Shown: positions 32,162-40,524 of the stretch, in pieces
How positions within the stretch are numbered: position 1 is the first letter of the stretch
Layout of the letters: each line of letters begins with the position of its first letter
Source: Bacteroidia bacterium
Lineage (GTDB): Bacteria > Bacteroidota > Bacteroidia > Bacteroidales > GCA-2748055
Length of the DNA: 62,289 nt
Reading direction: 5' to 3'
Assembly: GCA_030639005.1 (NCBI GenBank)
Contig: DAOWDN010000165.1
Location: 1-62,289 of the forward strand
The notes under the pieces: model-generated
What the model was told of the DNA's origin: nothing
What the model saw: the letters and a program-made list of their open reading frames with translations, nothing else
Database searches by the model: none
Program-made: the position numbers and the translations under genes

Positions 32162-32593
32162 GTGTTATCCAATACAAGCAAATATGCCATCAGGGCATTG
32201 ATCTACCTGGAGCTCTACTCAACTCCTGAAAAAAAGGCGGGTATCAAGGAGATTTCAGGAGAACTTGATATTCCCTCTCCGTTTCTGGGCAAGATTCTGC
32301 AGGTGCTGGTAAAGCACAATTTTCTGAGTTCAAGCAAGGGACCACACGGAGGCTTTTATCTGAAGAGATCCGCCATAGATATTACCTTAATGGAGGTGAT
32401 TGATGTGATTGACGGAAAAGATTCATTTGAAACCTGTGTGATCAGGAACACCTCGTGTAGCAACGACAATCCATGTAGCATGCATCATAAAATGGCGCCG
32501 CTGTGGAATGAAATGAGAAGGGTGTTTGCTACAGAGACCATTGCCGACCTGGTGTCGGAATTCAGAGAAGACAGGGAGAGGGTCAGGATCTAA
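32162..32593 (+). CDS. Rrf2 family transcriptional regulator
   Basis: YAIRAL, FLGKILQ, KGPHGGFYL; three Cys (CVIRNTSC....C) suggest Fe-S binding. Confidence 0.92.
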   Translation: MLSNTSKYAIRALIYLELYSTPEKKAGIKEISGELDIPSPFLGKILQVLVKHNFLSSSKGPHGGFYLKRSAIDITLMEVIDVIDGKDSFETCVIRNTSCSNDNPCSMHHKMAPLWNEMRRVFATETIADLVSEFREDRERVRI

Positions 32594-32975
32594 GGAATCT
32601 GAAAATTTTCCACCCCCCGATTACCCTATGGGCTATATACCCACCAATCAGCCCTAAAAAATTTGCCATCAAATCGAACCATTCTGCCGAACGGGCAGCA
32701 ATCACGGTGGCCTGCAAGATTTCAATCAATGCACTCAGGGCAAAAATGGAAAACAGCAGGATCATATGAAAACCCAGACGGGGATGCTCATGACGGTCCT
32801 CAGCCAGAGCAACAAAACCAAGAGCTGCATACATGGAAAAATGAATGATTTTATCAAAATGAGGTATTGAAAACAGGAAAGAACCCGGCACGTTATCACC
32901 GGGAATAAGGCTTAACAAGGCAATGGCCATGACCAAAAAAAGGGAAAATTTATATTGGAACACGTAACTTAGCAT
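32583..32975 (-). CDS. VanZ-like membrane protein
   Basis: DKIIHFSMY, IEILQ, RSAEWFDLMANFLG; start at the ATG at 32975. Confidence 0.85.
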   Translation of the reverse strand: MLSYVFQYKFSLFLVMAIALLSLIPGDNVPGSFLFSIPHFDKIIHFSMYAALGFVALAEDRHEHPRLGFHMILLFSIFALSALIEILQATVIAARSAEWFDLMANFLGLIGGYIAHRVIGGWKIFRFLRS

Positions 32976-33021
32976 ATGAGCATGGCATTTGGGCCAGCAC
33001 AAATATGATAAATATTTTGAA

Positions 33022-36000
33022 ATGAAACTTGATGAACTTCTTACTTTCCTGAAAGGGGAGACCATTGATACATGGTTTGATCTGGGGCTTTTCCTGGACA
33101 AGCTTAAGGAAGAGCAACCCTATCCTCATATTAAACTAGACGGATCGTATGATGATTTTAAGGAAGAGTTAAGAACCGGGGGGATTGCATTTCTCACTTT
33201 TCATTATATGGTGGACGGGGTAACTGTGGAAGTGGATAAATATGCTTCCCTGATAAGGCGCAATATACCAGGGATTCCGGTGCACTACATCGCGGGAGAG
33301 ATTCACTCCAAAACCGCCCCGTTTATCCATATGGATTACAAACAAAAAGTAATCCCAGAGCTGACCGGGTTTAATGACTGGGAGCTCTACCGCGATTTCT
33401 ATTTCACCAAACTTGAAAGGGGAAGCGGTGTTTACAACGAACTGATCAGAAAACTATGGAGACAGACCCTGGTCATCATAGAAAAGCTGGGGAGCTACAT
33501 TGAAGATCAGGGGATCAACCTCCTCTATGTGATCAATGTTTGTTCCAATCCGGGGAACGTGGCGTTTGCCCTGGCCACCGTTTTGTTATCTGAATTCCTG
33601 AAAATCCCTGTGATCAACAACAATCATGATTTCTTCTGGGAGGAAGGGATGTGTAGTTCGGACAGGGAGAGAGAGGGGTCCAAACACGGACCCAGAGATT
33701 TCTTTTTTACCAACTGTCAGCTGGGGGAGTTCTTTTCGGTCATAGAGATGTTGTACCCGTGGCAATCGCGCAGCTGGATCAATGTGAACATAAACAGGGG
33801 GCAGTCCGAACACCTGGTCAGGCTTAACGGTCACAACCCTGCCAACGTGATGGAAATAGGAACAGCCGTAGACACCACACAATACTCAAAAAGCGATAAA
33901 CGTAAAAACATTAACACTTTTCTTCAGCTGGAAAAAATTCTCTCCAGGTATCAGCCAAAGCTGGTCAGCTATTCGGCGAAGGATGTCCTGACGGGCGGAC
34001 TGGTGAGAGAGAAAAACCCGAGGCCCATCCTGATTGGAGCGAGGACTGTTGCTGTGGACAGGTTTATCGGAGAGAACATCATCCTTCTGCAACCTACCCG
34101 GATCATCTCAAGGAAAAGGATTGAAACCTCTTTTAACCTGCTGTTAAAAATGTTCCAGGAAGAGGAGATGGTTATGAGGTTCAAAAAAACCTCACACTTG
34201 AAAATGACCCTGCTGATCACAGGGCCCATCGCTGCAAGCCACTATGGCTATTATAAAAAGCTGATAGAAAAATTCGAAGCCCTGTTGAATGAAGCAGCCC
34301 CTGAAATGAAAGACAGGATCTATCTGGCGCTCCTGTTTGGAGAGTTGGACCGGGATTCTTTCAAGGAACGATTTACCCATCCGGCGGGCATTGCCGAACT
34401 TTACAACATATCTTCACTGGTATTGCTGCCCAGCAAGACAGAGGGCCGCGGACTGCCGATCATTGAAGCTACTGCCTGCGGCACACCCATTTTCTGCAGA
34501 CGGTATGAGCCCGAAACGGTCTATTCGGAGGTGATCGGTGAACACTTGGGCGAGAGGGATCGGTTGAAAGTTCTGGAGTTTAAAGGAAAGCGCATTTCCG
34601 ACAACTTGGTTCTGCGAATCATCGATAGGATATTTTTCCCCCACCACTATACCGACGAAGTAAGGCACAACCGGAGGGTGGTGAACAAGCGGTACAGTCT
34701 CGATTCGCTCAATGACAATATCTTCCAGATCATGCACCGCTTGTTTGATCAGCTCAGGGGAGATGAGAAAAACCTGAGAAATGTCAAAGAGAGCCTGGAC
34801 GATTACCGGGAGATGATAAACGTCTCTAACGAACACCTGGAAGCATTGCTGGATACCAGACACAGGCAGTACCTGGCTGGTTTTTCAAAACTATCGTTTA
34901 TGTTCATGCTGAAATCGCTGATCGATCCAAGCTTTTTTCGGGTGGAACAACAACGCATCCGTGGCATGGCATTTCACTTCTCTGGTGCCATTATCAGCAA
35001 CGATCCGGATGCCGGGTATATCCCGGAGAAGATCATCCACCGGTTTTATAATGCGGTGGAAACACTTTTTGAGTACAGAGAGGGTGAATGCACGGTTCAG
35101 CATGACCACTCTATGTCGTACCGGCATCGTAATAAGCACCACTATCCATACCAGGATTATACTTTCCAGGAGCTGACCGGGCTGATCAACCTGCTCTACA
35201 TCGAGATCGTACAACCCACCCCCCTGAATAAGGTGGACCTGAGTCCACAGTTCTTTACCGACTGGAACCTGGCCTTGCTGCAGTTAACCGGCAGCTCCCA
35301 CCTGGCCATAGATGACCGGAAACGGCTGATTGAACAACTCAGGAAAAACCTGCCCATCGCCTATTTCCCCGGGGCCTATATCATGTATGAACTGGAATTT
35401 TTTGCACTTCAGTCGATTCGCTCAAGGATGCACCTGCCCCTGGAGGAGATGATTACGCGTGAAATGCTGGAAAAGGAGACTGTCCGGGTTAAGCCTGTCT
35501 ATATTTTTGCACAGGAGAAAAACCTGGGAAAACAATTAAACAAGGATGAGATCACCGATTATATCATTAACGGCGACTCGGAGGAGTTAAAGCTACTCTA
35601 TGAATTTAAACTGATCCAGATCATTCGTACCAAGCAGGTGTGTGTGGGCATTCATTTTCCGCAGCTTGGAAACCGCGCATTGAAGGTTCTGAGGATGATC
35701 AGGGAGCAAAACGGATGCATTCTGACCAACCGGAGCAACGCTTCCATGATGACTGATATGGTGGATATGGACCGGTTCCACATCGGGAAGGTCCCCAATG
35801 AATTTACGGCCCACATGATGGGCATCCCGGTGCACAGCGGATATATTCAGTTTGTACCGGCAGGAGCGAGGGCGACCCTAAGCTATCCCACGCCCATTCA
35901 GACGGCAAAGGATTTCGAGCGTGCCATGAAAAGCGATCTCTACAGAAAGGTGGTGAAAAGATTGGGAGAGAAGGAGGTGTTGTCGGCCATCAGGGAAGAT

Positions 36001-37179
36001 GCATCACACAGGGGAAGTCCGGTGAAACATGTGCTTGAGACGCTGGAAAAGAGAAAGGACACTCCGGGTCCGGTCTCCTATGAATATCTGAGCGGAACCT
36101 ATCGCGACGGAATGCCTTACAACGGGGTAATTGCGACCCTCAGCTACAATAAGGAAAAGTGGGATTTCGCAGCAGTGACCACCCCAGGGAAACCCAAAAC
36201 AGTACAACAGTTTGTGAGAGCCTTCAAAAGACAAACAGGGAACACGGCACAGATTGCCTGGAACGGCGGATATATTCTGAACCCGGAACTGGTCGGCAAG
36301 CTTGGCTTGCCCGAAACTTATATCGGTTCACCTCTGGGCTTACTGATCTCGGAAGGGAGAATGACCTCTGCACCGTTATTTAATAAACCAGCCTTGCTTG
36401 TGTTCAAAAATGGCTCCATCGATATCAGGAGGGTAAATTGCAGAAGCGGGCTGACCATGGTCTGGAGGAACCGCACCATTTCACTGGAGAGTAGCTCTTA
36501 CAATAAGGAGAGCATCACAGGAGAATCGGCCTATTATGACCTGCTTTATCACCGGGATGCAGTCGACAGCTTTGGCCGTACCGTGGTCAGGTTGTCGGGG
36601 AATGTAGTTAAGGAGATTGTGGAGACAAAGAAGGGAGATTGGGTAACAGTGGTACCGGTGGGTCTGACGCTGGTACTGGATCCACAGGAGATCCCGGAAG
36701 GAGCGAAGGCGGGCGACACTCTCGAACTGAATGTCCCCGGGTTTCATGAGGTTCTGCACGCTGTGGAGGCCGGACCTCTTTTGCTGGAGGGAGGAAAGAG
36801 TTCTATAGACATGGAGATGGAAGGGTGGAAGAGTTCAAATTCCATTCGCACCCAGGCCGCCAGGTTAGATTATACAGAAATGAGAGGCCCAAAAATTGCA
36901 GTGGGAATTAATGAAAAGGAGCAGTTGGCAGTGCTGACCATCAATGGAAGAATCAGAGAATCGGTGGGGGCCACCCATGAAGACATGGCCGAGATTTTGC
37001 TGCAACACGGCATGGAGAGGGCCATGGGATTTGATCCGGGGGGAAGCAGCACAATGGTGGTGGGTGATAAAATATTGAATATATCTCCCTACAATAGCGG
37101 GTATGAAAAAGATGTGTATGCCCTTCCCCCTGAACCAAGGGCGGTATCCAATGCCATTATCGGGTTTATCAACAAGTAA
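33022..37179 (+). CDS. Large fusion protein: GT4 glycosyltransferase, unknown middle region, phosphodiester glycosidase (NAGPA-like) domain
   Basis: GT4 motifs DGVTVEVDKY, NHDFFWE, QPTRIISRKRIE, PSKTEGRGLPIIEA. NAGPA-like motifs WNGGY, AGPLL, PKIAVGI, INGR..SVGAT, FDPGGSSTM, RAVSNAI. Continuous ORF, no signal peptide. Confidence 0.85.
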   Translation: MKLDELLTFLKGETIDTWFDLGLFLDKLKEEQPYPHIKLDGSYDDFKEELRTGGIAFLTFHYMVDGVTVEVDKYASLIRRNIPGIPVHYIAGEIHSKTAPFIHMDYKQKVIPELTGFNDWELYRDFYFTKLERGSGVYNELIRKLWRQTLVIIEKLGSYIEDQGINLLYVINVCSNPGNVAFALATVLLSEFLKIPVINNNHDFFWEEGMCSSDREREGSKHGPRDFFFTNCQLGEFFSVIEMLYPWQSRSWINVNINRGQSEHLVRLNGHNPANVMEIGTAVDTTQYSKSDKRKNINTFLQLEKILSRYQPKLVSYSAKDVLTGGLVREKNPRPILIGARTVAVDRFIGENIILLQPTRIISRKRIETSFNLLLKMFQEEEMVMRFKKTSHLKMTLLITGPIAASHYGYYKKLIEKFEALLNEAAPEMKDRIYLALLFGELDRDSFKERFTHPAGIAELYNISSLVLLPSKTEGRGLPIIEATACGTPIFCRRYEPETVYSEVIGEHLGERDRLKVLEFKGKRISDNLVLRIIDRIFFPHHYTDEVRHNRRVVNKRYSLDSLNDNIFQIMHRLFDQLRGDEKNLRNVKESLDDYREMINVSNEHLEALLDTRHRQYLAGFSKLSFMFMLKSLIDPSFFRVEQQRIRGMAFHFSGAIISNDPDAGYIPEKIIHRFYNAVETLFEYREGECTVQHDHSMSYRHRNKHHYPYQDYTFQELTGLINLLYIEIVQPTPLNKVDLSPQFFTDWNLALLQLTGSSHLAIDDRKRLIEQLRKNLPIAYFPGAYIMYELEFFALQSIRSRMHLPLEEMITREMLEKETVRVKPVYIFAQEKNLGKQLNKDEITDYIINGDSEELKLLYEFKLIQIIRTKQVCVGIHFPQLGNRALKVLRMIREQNGCILTNRSNASMMTDMVDMDRFHIGKVPNEFTAHMMGIPVHSGYIQFVPAGARATLSYPTPIQTAKDFERAMKSDLYRKVVKRLGEKEVLSAIREDASHRGSPVKHVLETLEKRKDTPGPVSYEYLSGTYRDGMPYNGVIATLSYNKEKWDFAAVTTPGKPKTVQQFVRAFKRQTGNTAQIAWNGGYILNPELVGKLGLPETYIGSPLGLLISEGRMTSAPLFNKPALLVFKNGSIDIRRVNCRSGLTMVWRNRTISLESSSYNKESITGESAYYDLLYHRDAVDSFGRTVVRLSGNVVKEIVETKKGDWVTVVPVGLTLVLDPQEIPEGAKAGDTLELNVPGFHEVLHAVEAGPLLLEGGKSSIDMEMEGWKSSNSIRTQAARLDYTEMRGPKIAVGINEKEQLAVLTINGRIRESVGATHEDMAEILLQHGMERAMGFDPGGSSTMVVGDKILNISPYNSGYEKDVYALPPEPRAVSNAIIGFINK

Positions 37180-37201
37180 AGGAGTGACCGGCTACTGACA
37201 C

Positions 37202-38329
37202 ATGCAGGGCATCTATATCCATATTCCATTTTGCAGGCAAGCCTGCAGGTATTGTGATTTTTTTTTCTCTGTGAGTCTTCGATACATGGATGAATATGTG
37301 GAGCGGCTGGTGGAAGAGATTACCCGCAGAAGCAGAGAAAATGGCGGAACGGAGCTGGACACCCTTTACCTGGGCGGGGGAACCCCCTCTCTGCTCACCG
37401 AGGCTCACCTGGAGAAGATTGTGTCGGCTGTTTCCCGCTTTCACTCATTTCGTGAGGGTCCTGAGTGGACCATAGAATGCAATCCCGATGACCTGGAGCC
37501 GGGGCGTCTTAAATATTTGAAAAGCACCGGATTTAACAGGCTGAGTATAGGCATCCAATCTTTTCAGGACAGAGACCTTGAAATCATGCGCAGATCACAC
37601 AATGCCAGGCAGGCAGAAGATTCTGTGCAACTGGCAGCCTCTTCAGGGTTCGGGAATATAAGCATCGACTTAATCTACGGAATTCCCGGACAGATCACCG
37701 GAGAGTGGGAAGAAAACATTGAAAAGGCCCTATCGCTGCCGGTTTCACACCTTTCTGCTTATCACCTGACTTTTGAACCGGGCACCGTATTTGATCACTG
37801 GCGAAAAAAGGGAAGTTTGATTTCTGTTCACGAGGAGGAGAGTGTGAAGCAATACAGGAAGCTGAGAGAAAAGCTGCTGCCGGCCGGATTTGAACATTAT
37901 GAACTATCCAATTTTGGACTGACTGGCCGGATGTCGGAGCACAACATGATCTATTGGTCCGGAAAATCATACCAGGGTTTCGGCCCATCGGCCTACTCCT
38001 ATGACGGAAAAAGAAGGAGCTGGAACCTATCCTCTTTGAAGGGGTACCTGGAAGGAGTTGCCGGGGGAGAGGAGATCAGCGAAACGGAACACCTCACCAC
38101 GGATGAACAGTACCACGATTACCTGATTACTTCGTTGCGGACCAGGTGGGGATGCGATCCCGTTCATATGGAACTGCAGTACGGAAAGAGGTACCTGGAA
38201 CATTTCGAAAACAGGGCCAGACCCTTCCTTGAGAGTGGTTCTCTCTATCACACGGATGACAGGATCGCCATTCACCCAGACAGGTGGCTGATCACCGATC
38301 ACATCCTCAGGGAGTTGTTTGTGGATTAA
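37202..38329 (+). CDS. hemW: Radical SAM heme chaperone HemW
   Basis: IYIHIPFCRQACRYCDF, GGGTPS, YELSNF, HNMIYW. Confidence 0.92.
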   Translation: MQGIYIHIPFCRQACRYCDFFFSVSLRYMDEYVERLVEEITRRSRENGGTELDTLYLGGGTPSLLTEAHLEKIVSAVSRFHSFREGPEWTIECNPDDLEPGRLKYLKSTGFNRLSIGIQSFQDRDLEIMRRSHNARQAEDSVQLAASSGFGNISIDLIYGIPGQITGEWEENIEKALSLPVSHLSAYHLTFEPGTVFDHWRKKGSLISVHEEESVKQYRKLREKLLPAGFEHYELSNFGLTGRMSEHNMIYWSGKSYQGFGPSAYSYDGKRRSWNLSSLKGYLEGVAGGEEISETEHLTTDEQYHDYLITSLRTRWGCDPVHMELQYGKRYLEHFENRARPFLESGSLYHTDDRIAIHPDRWLITDHILRELFVD

Positions 38330-39621
38330 GCACCGGCTGCCGAGATGGCCATGCCGATCAGCAACTCAAGTTTTTCATGAAGAGTATCGTAACTGAAGTA
38401 TTTTTTCCCCAGTTCAAAATTGTAATCTGTAATCTCTTCAGCCAGCTGAGGATTGTAGATTATCTCCGCCATTTGCTTCACACTGTCGTCTGTCAGCTCG
38501 CCATTTTCAATCATTACAGTCCGGAACCCTTTGCTGCCTATATCGGGCTGATAAACAGGCTCATAGTTATTAACAAATATAGGCCGTCTGGCCAGAACCG
38601 CCTCTACGAATGCATTTCCAAACCCCTCATAGGTGCTGAAATAGGTGCAGGCAGTGGCCCTGGCATAAGCATCTGACAGAGAGAAACGTACATCTCCGTT
38701 TCTATTGGAAAGGCCCTTGTTGTGGAAAAGGTCATAGGCAAAACTGACCTGTTCGCCCAGTTTCAGCTCATGGATCTGGTTCACCAGTTCGTTGTAATAG
38801 GAACTACCTGCATCGTCTGCGTAGTTCCCGGTAATAATTAGCTTCACCCTCTTATCGCTCAGCTTATGCAAAAGACTAATGGCCGATTCAATCCCTTTTC
38901 TTCGCACAATTCGAGTGATCTGGAAGAGGAAAAGGTCCTGCTTGCTGAAGCCCATGTGTCTGGCCAGGTAAGCATTTTTCTGGTTCTGAACCCCAAAAGA
39001 GTGATTGAAATTCATCACATTGGGAACGTTGACCGATACGCGGCCGAACCGTTCCTTTAATGTATTGACTGCATGGGTGTTGATTACAGCATGTACTGAA
39101 TTGGGAGAGCGCAATGGAAATATCTCTTCCACGAAATCATTGATCATTTTGTGGGGAGAGAAGTACCGGTCGCCCCGCTCCCAGGCAAAATCATGGTCAT
39201 GAGTAATGGTGGGAATACCGGTTTTGTGTACTGCTTTGTTGATGGCCATGCCCATTTCGAGGTGGGAGGGAAGGGCGGAGGCATTTTCCGAAATAAGCAG
39301 ATCAATCTTTTTCTCCCCGATCCAGTGAATGATCTTTTTATAGATCACCTTTGAATAGAGGTTCAGATGCTCAATTAACTCCTGAGGATTGGTTTCAGGG
39401 TAAAAAAAGGCTTTTTTCTGGCTCCAGAAACTTTCCGGGGAAAAGAAGGACATTTCGGGAACCAGGGTCTCTGTTTCGGGATCCATGGGACGCTCCTGAA
39501 ATTGCCCCGACAAAGTGTAGACACGATGACTCATCGTTTTGAGTACATCAATCCATTTCTCTGTTTCCAGTGCTACACCGTCCACTCCACCGATCCTTCC
39601 GATTATAATACCAATGTTCAT
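38326..39621 (-). CDS. GT4 glycosyltransferase, mannosylglucosylglycerate synthase (MggS)-like
   Basis: GGVDGVALETEKW, HDHDFAWER, TRIVRRKGIE, STYEGFGNAFVEA. Confidence 0.85.
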   Translation of the reverse strand: MNIGIIIGRIGGVDGVALETEKWIDVLKTMSHRVYTLSGQFQERPMDPETETLVPEMSFFSPESFWSQKKAFFYPETNPQELIEHLNLYSKVIYKKIIHWIGEKKIDLLISENASALPSHLEMGMAINKAVHKTGIPTITHDHDFAWERGDRYFSPHKMINDFVEEIFPLRSPNSVHAVINTHAVNTLKERFGRVSVNVPNVMNFNHSFGVQNQKNAYLARHMGFSKQDLFLFQITRIVRRKGIESAISLLHKLSDKRVKLIITGNYADDAGSSYYNELVNQIHELKLGEQVSFAYDLFHNKGLSNRNGDVRFSLSDAYARATACTYFSTYEGFGNAFVEAVLARRPIFVNNYEPVYQPDIGSKGFRTVMIENGELTDDSVKQMAEIIYNPQLAEEITDYNFELGKKYFSYDTLHEKLELLIGMAISAAGA

Positions 39622-39636
39622 GCGGGGAAGAATCTG

Positions 39637-40524
39637 TTATTTTAATACGAATGATGAATAACCGATCATTTTTCCTTCTGAATGAAGCTCCACGAGATGT
39701 TCACCGGGAACAATCTCCCCGTCGTTGGTCCAGAAGATAGAAATCGGCAGGTCCTCGTTTTCGTAATTGATGGTGCGGGAGGAGGAGACCGGGATCTGAT
39801 CTCCCCCGAATTCCACCATCTCCAGTTCGGGCGAACCCAAAACCACCATATCGGGCCGGACAATTCGAAGGGTGATATGTTTCTCTCCGGCCGGAGTTAC
39901 CTGGTTGGCCCTGAGCACAAAATCGACTCGCACTTTCACCGTGGTTCGGATCTTTTCAGTCTTTTTGTCACGTTTGTTAAGCAATACCAGGTTGATCTGA
40001 GAGGCCTTGAGGGTGGAGGCCAGGTCCTTGATCTCTTCCAGCTGGGTTTTGTCCTTCTCCAGCTGCTCCTTCTCTGTGGTGAGACGGCGTTCGGTATTTT
40101 TCAACTGCTTATTTTCAGCCATTAGCTCCTGGTTCATCAGGTTCAGCGAATCGATCTGTACGATGTAGCTTCTCAACACTGAACGAATGGTTTCCATTTC
40201 ACGCCGGTACATTTTAATCTTATAGGCATCATTAGCCTGGATGGAGATCAGCTTGTCGATCTTCTCCTGCTGCTGTTGCATCTCTACCTGAAGCTCCAGG
40301 TTGCTGGTTTCCAGGGTATCGTAGCGGAAGTAGATGTTGCGCAATTCTCCCTCCAGGGAATCCTTTTCAATTAGGAAAAACTCTGTTTTTTCAGCCAGGT
40401 CGGCCGAAACCAGGTTCAGGTTTTTCCTGGTATCTAACAACAAGTATACGGCGATGGCCAGGATCACCACCAGCAGGCCAAGCACCCCGTATAATACACC
40501 CGTATTGGATTTATTTTCAGTCAT
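39637..40524 (-). CDS. Membrane-anchored coiled-coil hypothetical protein
   Basis: N-terminal TM, heptad region, beta-rich C-terminal domain; TATATTTG at 40546-40553 (minus). Confidence 0.75.
   Translation of the reverse strand: MTENKSNTGVLYGVLGLLVVILAIAVYLLLDTRKNLNLVSADLAEKTEFFLIEKDSLEGELRNIYFRYDTLETSNLELQVEMQQQQEKIDKLISIQANDAYKIKMYRREMETIRSVLRSYIVQIDSLNLMNQELMAENKQLKNTERRLTTEKEQLEKDKTQLEEIKDLASTLKASQINLVLLNKRDKKTEKIRTTVKVRVDFVLRANQVTPAGEKHITLRIVRPDMVVLGSPELEMVEFGGDQIPVSSSRTINYENEDLPISIFWTNDGEIVPGEHLVELHSEGKMIGYSSFVLK

Follow-up and report, generated by a model that had tools for sequence, protein, structure and literature searches.

A stretch of 62,289 nucleotides from a Bacteroidia bacterium (Bacteroidales, GCA-2748055; assembly GCA_030639005.1, contig DAOWDN010000165.1, positions 1 to 62,289 of the forward strand), referred to below as the window, carries on its forward strand a gene for a protein of 1385 amino acids (aa), here called BIG (33022..37179 including the stop codon). 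On the opposite strand, at 38326..39621, lies the gene for a 431-aa MggS-like glycosyltransferase of family GT4, here called GT4s. BIG was shown to be a conserved chain of three folded modules in which no export signal was detected: a retaining glycosyltransferase of the GT-B/GT4 type whose E-x7-E motif is intact, a DUF89/ARMT1 fold in which the nucleophile/metal pair, a third Asp and a Lys have been replaced, and an NAGPA/DUF2233 fold that keeps its Asp and a downstream Arg and has a DPGGS loop. GT4s is the obligate partner of BIG, every BIG genome examined having it, and the two genes were shown to form a self-contained two-gene unit.

The frame of BIG is open from 32989 to 37179 on the forward strand, giving 1396 aa from a TTG codon or 1385 aa from the ATG at 33022. 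The ATG was taken as the start because a recorded protein of 1385 aa (P0002) is 100 % identical to BIG and most of the listed homologues measure 1383-1405 aa; the list of open reading frames (ORFs), the translation and the start context were used as well. A sequence-only reading of the same DNA had described one ORF of ~1385 aa without signal peptide, and this was borne out, as neither a signal peptide nor a membrane helix was found when the N-terminus, which is acidic, was inspected and the chain was scanned by the Kyte-Doolittle scale, a dedicated predictor not being among the methods. The highest 19-residue hydropathy mean (1.96) falls on residues 180-198, which in the model are a helix and a strand buried in the GT-B fold, with a pLDDT of ~92. 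From its sequence, BIG looks cytoplasmic, as had been proposed.

The spread of the family was followed with several searches. A word-indexed search, in which 7999 candidates were scored, returned at least 776 homologues at E <= 0.001; the 120 that were listed share 55-100 % identity with BIG and, where named, come from Bacteroidota/Bacteroidales metagenome-assembled genomes under the labels 'phosphodiester glycosidase family protein' or 'glycosyltransferase'. With residues 601-1385 as the query, an exhaustive HMMER search gave 1018 representative proteins at E <= 0.001 and 95 representative clusters (50 % identity) at E <= 1e-30. Full-length forms of ~1380-1440 aa reach down to ~30 % identity, and the named cluster members include records of Oligoflexia and Candidatus Shapirobacteria. 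When one genome per species was searched, 445 stretches fitted the patterns, of which 391 encode a relative. Neighbourhoods in these species genomes were counted in the best 80 loci of the 391 genomes, mostly Bacteroidales and Marinilabiliales assemblies, among which, by record title, are the cultured Marinifilum fragile JCM 15579, M. caeruleilacunae, Marinifilum sp. D737 and Ancylomarina longa. With at least 776 near-full-length homologues and 391 species genomes carrying a relative, the fusion is genuine and not an artefact of assembly.

The protein was modelled as residues 1-640 (pLDDT 79.7, pTM 0.77) and 601-1385 (pLDDT 76.9, pTM 0.74), with 34-sequence alignments, and residue counts by column were taken from 36 diverse aligned members of the family. 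Columns conserved in at least 90 % of them number 54 of 515 in the GT4 domain, 23 of 365 in the DUF89-like domain and 46 of 373 in the NAGPA-like domain. The limits that the sequence-only reading had set for the two outer domains agree with the models (GT ~1-576, NAGPA-like ~1027-1385). The ~450 residues between them, which it had treated as unassigned, turned out to be a third folded domain.

The GT4 domain occupies residues ~51-565 (33172..34716, forward strand), and was identified by Pfam, NCBIfam, Foldseek and BLASTP. In the model of residues 1-640 the GT-B fold drew at least 500 Foldseek matches at E <= 0.001, the top one being the Leishmania sucrose-phosphate synthase (SPS)-like 8vrf (2.4e-12), with GlgM 6tvp, MshA 3c4q and BshA 6n1x also among the best. 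Pfam Glycos_transf_1 scored 31.7 bits against a cut-off of 26.4, matching residues 457-496 only, so that, together with the NAGPA match given below, both of the Pfam families that the earlier reading had expected were above cut-off. The best NCBIfam model was that of MggS, NF041101 (8.7e-12, 44.5 bits against a cut-off of 640). The motif EGRGLPIIEA, which holds the E-x7-E pair (E474 and E482; 34441..34470, forward strand), keeps both glutamates in 34 of the 36 members, the two exceptions being the variants of 1559-1562 aa. The glycosyltransferase motifs quoted in the earlier reading were all present (DGVTVEV 65-71, NHDFFWE 201-207, TRIISRKRIE 359-368 and EGRGLPIIEA 474-483). Compared by BLASTP with its partner GT4s, the BIG domain has two insertions, at residues ~209-224 and ~285-345.

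The C-terminal domain (residues ~1013-1385; 36058..37176, forward strand) had been expected to adopt the fold of NAGPA, the lysosomal 'uncovering' enzyme, and this was supported. Pfam NAGPA PF09992 scored 57.1 bits against a cut-off of 25 (3.3e-15) over residues 1236-1379, covering profile positions 54-166 of 169, and sequence matches in the PDB were to Slr0280 (5h3k) and NAGPA (6pku). Foldseek matches to NAGPA/DUF2233 structures ranged from 3e-22 to 5e-13. By VIA, the best structure was 6pku_B (Z 24.8, root-mean-square deviation (rmsd) 2.4 Å, 239 of 264 residues), followed by 5h3k (Z 24.0) and BACOVA_00430, 3ohg (Z 23.4). The match to 6pku_B shows the three-subdomain alpha/beta fold of the NAGPA catalytic core in the model of this domain. 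The quoted NAGPA-type motifs were also found, with PKIAVG lying within 1287-1295, INGR at 1307-1310 and FDPGGS at 1337-1342.

The catalytic loop of this domain is altered. The available text of the NAGPA paper calls DGGGS strictly invariant in the family, reports D286 and R316 as essential, and places the backbone NH of G287 in contact with GlcNAc and T260 in contact with the phosphate (PMC13474241). In BIG, alignments to hidden Markov models of 6pku and 6u11 put the DPGGS loop (D1338-S1342; 37033..37047, forward strand) at the position of DGGGS and D1338 on the catalytic Asp. That column is Asp in 32 of the 36 members and the next one is Pro in 30, the loop being DPGGS in 29, DPGGA in one, DGGGS in one, DGGSS in one and lacking the Asp in four. 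In NAGPA this backbone NH binds the N-acetyl group, and its loss through the change from Gly to Pro makes GlcNAc an improbable sugar here. Downstream, R1373 lies 35 residues past D1338, against 30 between D286 and the phosphate-binding R316 in human NAGPA, and no alignment placed R1373 on R316; its column is Arg in 31 of 36 members and Lys in two more. Where NAGPA has DGQT, BIG has NGRIRES, with R1310 in 36 of 36, R1312 in 33 of 36 and S1314 invariant, and the arginines of this motif flank the glycine loop of DPGGS.

Two relatives of 1559-1562 aa, P0202 and P0204, lack the GT4 motifs in the alignment and have the pair of DUF89-like and NAGPA-like domains. P0202 has a signal-peptide-like N-terminus, an N-terminal region of ~700 aa and the canonical LDGGGS loop, and P0204 has DGGSS in the alignment. 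From this layout, the C-terminal two-domain module also occurs in an exported-looking protein without transferase.

The middle domain (residues ~601-965; 34822..35916, forward strand) was assigned to the DUF89/ARMT1-like phosphatase fold by Foldseek, VIA and hhalign. Foldseek matched it to 2g8l (1.4e-7) and 1xfi (7e-7), and VIA to 1xfi (Z 20.5, 294 residues aligned), 2g8l (Z 19.7, rmsd 2.6 Å, 244 of 286 residues) and 2ffj (Z 18.2), whereas the next unrelated row had a Z of 7.4. When the profile of the 36 members was compared by hhalign with 12 canonical DUF89 proteins from related genomes, homology was detected over BIG residues 713-940 with a probability of 95.9 % (E 5.7e-9). Pfam PF01937 gave no match to BIG at E <= 1, and none in the whole-genome scan at E <= 10, in which a canonical DUF89 gene on another contig was the sole match; the distant member P0187 reached 19.6 bits, below the cut-off of 25. 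A search of the ESM Atlas with residues 601-1012 gave no usable match.

According to the available text of PMC9062747, DUF89 enzymes use an Asp nucleophile that also binds the metal, with an adjacent Asn and a further Asp, and need a Lys. In the register given by hhalign, the catalytic positions in BIG are occupied by A785 for the Asp, Y786 for the Asn, Q838 for the third metal Asp and N903 for the phosphate-binding Lys, and FPGAY (35365..35379, forward strand) stands at the position of the G-D-N nucleophile/metal motif. Asp was counted in the nucleophile column in one of 36 members, and the Asp-Asn pair in none. Distant members retain remnants resembling the VRE.P...D.T and [KR]GE.N[YF] motifs of DUF89. 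The remnants, with the loss of the catalytic residues, indicate that the domain descends from a DUF89 phosphatase yet cannot use DUF89 chemistry, and it is a clear case of a catalytic fold kept as a conserved non-catalytic module. The motif LAID[DN] (761-765) was tried as the DUF89 D-N motif and rejected, since hhalign puts it on the canonical 'ELAIDD', upstream of G-D-N. What is conserved instead is a loop specific to the family, HDHSMSYRHRN (35101..35133, forward strand), which was modelled at low confidence and has D695 in 36 of 36, R701 in 34 of 36 and R703 in 32 of 36 members; D912 of the same domain is also conserved. The genome also has a canonical DUF89 gene of 284 aa (G000:C178:4012-4821, L011) with its GDN, IND and KGQGN motifs intact, so the degenerate domain of BIG is not the sole DUF89 of the cell.

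Two helical segments complete the chain. The N-terminal extension (residues 1-50; 33022..33171, forward strand) has helices at 3-11 and 18-31 in model m8450c2ec4955, with W18 and D20 nearly invariant, and a linker of residues ~966-1012 (35917..36057, forward strand) joins the second and third modules as the helices 362-409, in fragment numbering, of model me96e035329cf.

The sequence-only reading overlooked the obligate partner encoded at 38326..39621. GT4s matched NF041101 over its full length (6e-59, 200 bits (199.9) against the cut-off of 640), BLASTP found the motif HDFxWE in common between GT4s and the GT domain of BIG, and the two proteins were the sole matches to the MggS model in the genome. 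Among 41 related genomes, BIG was present in 20, all of which (20/20) have GT4s, and three more have GT4s alone. In a sample of the order covering 201 genomes and 167 genera, BIG was found in 12 and GT4s in 14, and all 12 BIG genomes carry GT4s. Where the two genes are unlinked, GT4s was still found in five of five genomes, two of which also belong to the order sample. As these genomes are kin and not independent, the counts are given without a statistical test.

Linkage between the genes was then counted in two sets of loci. GT4s was found within the fetched flanks in 47 of the 80 species-genome loci, a count that leaves out two matches of 22 % identity lying on the GT domain of BIG itself. 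The second set consisted of 80 metagenome loci fetched with distant BIG members. There, GT4s lies directly upstream on the same strand in 39, with a gap of no more than 30 nt or an overlap in 31 of the 39; 10 have the arrangement of the window, 20 were too short to judge, and in two BIG was not called. The remaining nine show no GT4s over flanks that reach at least 1.5 kb on the upstream side and 4 kb on the downstream side. When all flanking ORFs were clustered, no other gene family was found to recur beside BIG and GT4s outside the window-type synteny. A membrane segment was detected in neither BIG nor GT4s. Complex prediction for BIG 1-565 with GT4s, both entered as alignments and without folded controls, gave run scores of 0.01, 0.36 and 0.02 against a mark of 0.32, which speaks neither for nor against binding.

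Other neighbours were examined as candidate partners and rejected. HemW, a radical-SAM (S-adenosylmethionine) protein gene at 37202-38329, stands between BIG and GT4s in 63 of the 80 genome loci; it was taken as a housekeeping neighbour, because it stays when BIG is lost and the GT4s-BIG operons of other lineages do not contain it. A 295-aa membrane-anchored coiled-coil protein (39637-40524, reverse strand) adjoins GT4s only in window-type synteny. It consists of a single membrane helix at the N-terminus, a long coiled coil and a beta-rich part at the C-terminus, and belongs to no Pfam family. It follows GT4s in 32 of the 80 genome loci, whereas the GT4s-BIG operons of other lineages lack it; in the Marinifilum fragile record (L108) a homologue is located ~1.6 kb from the unlinked GT4s. 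A SAM methyltransferase, considered as a protein with which GT4s might pair in genomes lacking BIG, was found in eight of the 41 relatives without a pattern complementary to BIG. A 311-aa SAM methyltransferase lies 3 nt downstream of GT4s in the BIG-less genomes G017 (L197:11964-12899) and G021 (L198:12029-12964), and one also adjoins GT4s in G010, which has BIG.

Several further observations were made at these loci. In an assembly labelled Flavobacteriaceae (L099:338-7069), GT4s, BIG and a gene of the GH76 (alpha-1,6-mannanase) family follow on one strand, and the GH76 gene may hint at mannose chemistry. A gene pair without Pfam family (~300 aa and ~150 aa) stands divergently beside the unlinked GT4s in four of five genomes (L108:8442-9819, L109:227-1636, L110:6295-7727 and L112:2652-4094); it is probably a common, unrelated family, because several copies occur elsewhere in the window genome (C130, C13). 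Two BIG genomes have GT4s with one in-frame stop (G022:C408:1041-2330 and G194:C28:9942-11189; TGA in one and TAA in the other), which could be a sequencing error or a decaying copy. At the other end of the locus, a VanZ-like ORF (32583-33101, reverse strand; 172 aa from TTG as listed) overlaps the start of BIG by 80 nt. As homologous ORFs in related loci measure ~125-145 aa, the listed start is probably too far out and the overlap spurious. Regarding the family at large, shorter proteins (816-1135 aa) were considered as split forms of BIG. The three examined begin inside the BIG sequence and look like truncated gene calls, P0122 and P0124 beginning without Met. A 12-kb contig titled Candidatus Woesearchaeota archaeon and binned as a DPANN archaeon (L090) encodes a full-length relative, 50 % identical to the window protein and adjoining a PD-(D/E)XK nuclease, either by horizontal transfer or by a binning error.

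As to habitat, nine sequencing runs hold at least half of the sampled words of the window, under the labels cold-seep, marine-sediment or unspecified metagenomes; the source sample may be among them. Contigs from RNA libraries (two runs of one study) cover parts of BIG at 95-100 % identity (34389-34638, 35143-35373, 35983-36220, 36604-36965 and 37025-37314). This cover gives a weak hint of BIG transcription, carry-over of DNA being possible. GT4s is uncovered in these two runs, which proves nothing about its transcription.

With respect to function, the reading that we tentatively favour, although its probability falls somewhat short of even, is that the pair makes a soluble cytoplasmic glycoside from a small phosphorylated acceptor, with the DUF89 relic binding the intermediate and the NAGPA-like domain cleaving a glycosyl-1-phosphate bond. 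Both GT4 units would use nucleoside diphosphate (NDP)-sugars to glycosylate the acceptor in the cytoplasm, candidates being a sugar-1-phosphate or a phospho-acid, in the manner of SPS, GlgM, MshA and MggA. The dead DUF89 module might then bind or hand over the phosphorylated intermediate, and the NAGPA-like module would cut its glycosyl-1-phosphate C1-O bond, yielding a free soluble glycoside plus phosphate or a phosphomonoester. In so doing it would replace the phosphatase step of classical synthase/phosphatase solute pathways. The sequence-only reading, which had BIG make and then trim a sugar phosphodiester or a phosphorylated glycoside, is supported in part. The fusion, the NAGPA fold and the kept Asp stand, and a phosphorylated glycoside remains possible; synthesis of a phosphodiester found no support, because GT4 enzymes form glycosidic bonds and the sole conserved neighbour is a second GT4 and not a sugar-phosphate transferase. 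The two-domain view also had to be given up, since the likeness to synthase/phosphatase fusions that it had assigned to the NAGPA domain as an unexpected second fold belongs rather to a third, DUF89-type fold (~601-965) that has lost its catalytic residues.

Several observations weigh against the cytoplasmic-glycoside mechanism, which is inferred from folds and motifs only. In three close relatives (96-99 % complete) BIG has been cleanly lost from the same syntenic slot and GT4s kept, so GT4s works without BIG, and the adjacency of the genes in the window lineage carries little weight alone because they lie within a long housekeeping synteny (RuvB, NadA, RpiB, HemW). The Foldseek neighbours of the GT4 domain also include, at lower ranks, enzymes of polymers and the envelope (glycogen synthases, WaaG, PglA, HepE). 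The catalytic Asp of the third domain is lost in P0132, P0149, P0187 and P0188 (four of 36), which keep E-x7-E, and catalysis by this domain is accordingly dispensable in some lineages. By analogy with NAGPA, the Pro of DPGGS could be disabling the site rather than retuning it; in that enzyme, as the available text of PMC13474241 has it, G287A disrupts exit from the endoplasmic reticulum, a defect of folding and trafficking, and not catalysis. Finally, the entry enzymes for glucosylglycerate and mannosylglycerate, which bear on the compatible solute that the sequence-only reading had offered as an example, were sought in the genome, which is 100 % complete. TIGR02460 went unmatched, and NF010496 had a best score of 59 bits against 262; with no GpgS/MPGS orthologue above cut-off, the known mannosylglucosylglycerate/glucosylglycerate (MGG/GG) route is not present, the GgS and sucrose phosphorylase routes not having been searched.

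Some of the same evidence would suit a different product. It is possible, though unlikely, that the GT4 units extend an intracellular oligo- or polysaccharide and that the NAGPA-like domain trims or recycles it as a hydrolase, as for the mycobacterial methylmannose/methylglucose polysaccharides or a glycogen-like store, in the spirit of 'build-and-uncover' and with no phosphodiester involved. Among the structures that resemble the GT domain are those of the methylmannose-polysaccharide mannosyltransferase 7qsg and of glycogen synthases, three of the 41 relatives have a SAM methyltransferase gene immediately after GT4s, a GH76 gene follows BIG in L099, and a transferase and a glycosidase-type fold in one chain would suit synthesis plus recycling. 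Nevertheless, genes for forming a primer, for branching or for handling a polymer do not recur next to BIG and GT4s, the methyltransferase occurs in just eight of the 41 relatives, including one that lacks both BIG and GT4s, and a plain glycan offers no phosphate leaving group, which NAGPA chemistry requires in the available account of the enzyme (PMC13474241). The NAGPA-like domain could also be a transglycosylase of a new kind, dependent on glycosyl phosphates, rather than a hydrolase, a view that we rate as quite improbable. The GT4 units would build a di- or oligosaccharide-1-phosphate, as GlgM makes maltose-1-phosphate, the dead DUF89 domain might channel this intermediate between the two sites, and the NAGPA-like domain would pass the glycosyl group to an acceptor and release phosphate by the front-face retaining chemistry proposed for NAGPA, thus following GlgE logic on an unrelated fold. 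If true, this would be a previously unknown cytoplasmic pathway to a glycan or glycoside, horizontally spread among marine-sediment bacteria.

Catalysis could also be confined to the GT4 domain, with the DUF89-like and NAGPA-like domains sensing a sugar phosphate or scaffolding the partner and so regulating the transferase. Similar roles are played by the non-catalytic SPP-like domain of SPS and by the regulatory subunits of the yeast trehalose synthase complex. The family-wide loss of the DUF89 catalytic residues, the alteration of the otherwise invariant DGGGS loop, the absence of its Asp in four of 36 members and the very short operon gaps, which would fit a stoichiometric complex, all argue for such a role. 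Yet among distant members conservation is highest in the NAGPA-like domain, which keeps the Asp in 32 and the Arg in 31 of 36 and in which R1310 and S1314 do not vary; such a pattern fits a working site better than a scaffold, and we consider a purely regulatory role doubtful. Still less probable is that the NAGPA-like domain acts on existing glycosyl-1-phosphates and not on the GT product, placing BIG in envelope glycan metabolism; polyprenyl-phosphate sugars (in carrier recycling) or NDP-sugars (in donor control) would be the substrates. Both are abundant glycosyl-1-phosphate linkages facing the cytoplasm, and WaaG and PglA are among the GT4 neighbours, but no membrane segment was detected in either protein of the pair, no flippase, lipid-carrier or envelope genes are conserved nearby, and the cassette is patchy (12 of 201 genomes of the order), unlike core envelope functions.

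Whichever chemistry applies, the family sets the NAGPA fold in the cytoplasm, in one chain with a working-looking glycosyltransferase and a phosphatase relic, and ties it to a second glycosyltransferase. The characterised NAGPA-family members named in the available text of PMC13474241 are all lumenal or exported, and the bacterial ones with structures have no known substrates there. BIG and GT4s are therefore a tractable two-gene route to a bacterial substrate of this fold, and could reveal a new soluble sugar compound or intracellular glycan in abundant Bacteroidales of cold seeps and marine sediments. Because cultured carriers exist (Marinifilum fragile JCM 15579, Marinifilum caeruleilacunae and Ancylomarina longa), the function of the pair is directly testable.

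Among the closest known systems, the NAGPA/DUF2233 proteins (6pku, 6pki, 6u11, 3ohg BACOVA_00430, 5h3k Slr0280 and 6ozd BPSS2145) share the fold of the BIG C-terminus (Z 23-24.8, rmsd 2.4-3.2 Å, ~240-250 residues), and BIG keeps the D-x-G-G-S Asp and the Ser after it, as well as a downstream Arg. Unlike them, the BIG domain has no signal peptide or anchor and ends a cytoplasmic chain behind a GT4 and a DUF89-like domain, and it has the two-Arg NGRIRES where NAGPA has DGQT with its phosphate-binding Thr. The DUF89/ARMT1 proteins (PF01937; 2g8l PH1575, 1xfi At2g17340, 2ffj, 5f13 of yeast and 7t7k of fission yeast) have the same two-part fold, a helical and a Rossmann-like domain, and the middle domain of BIG matches prokaryotic and plant members with Z 18-20.5; it differs in lacking the Asp-Asn pair, the third Asp and the Lys, in falling below the Pfam threshold and in its own D-H-S-x-x-Y-R-H-R loop. 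With the GT4 synthases of small molecules (MggS, SPS, GlgM, MshA and BshA), BIG shares the GT-B fold, E-x7-E and the cytoplasmic location, whereas both BIG (44.5 bits) and GT4s (200 bits) remain far under the MggS equivalog cut-off of 640 and BIG carries an N-terminal extension and two insertions.

A full-text search of the literature, which covered few subscription journals and in which supplements were not opened, found no report of GT4 synthases fused to DUF89-like or NAGPA-like domains and no paper on the BIG architecture, in agreement with the sequence-only reading, to which no characterised protein of this architecture was known. A comparable layout is that of SPS with a C-terminal SPP-like domain, in which a GT4 synthase is followed by a phosphatase-shaped domain without catalytic residues. 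The GT4 of BIG also precedes such a domain, but its phosphatase fold is DUF89 and not HAD, a third domain of glycosidase type comes after it, and a separate paralogous GT4 is required. All three folds of BIG are known ones; the protein that they form is an uncharacterised variant and has an obligate partner.

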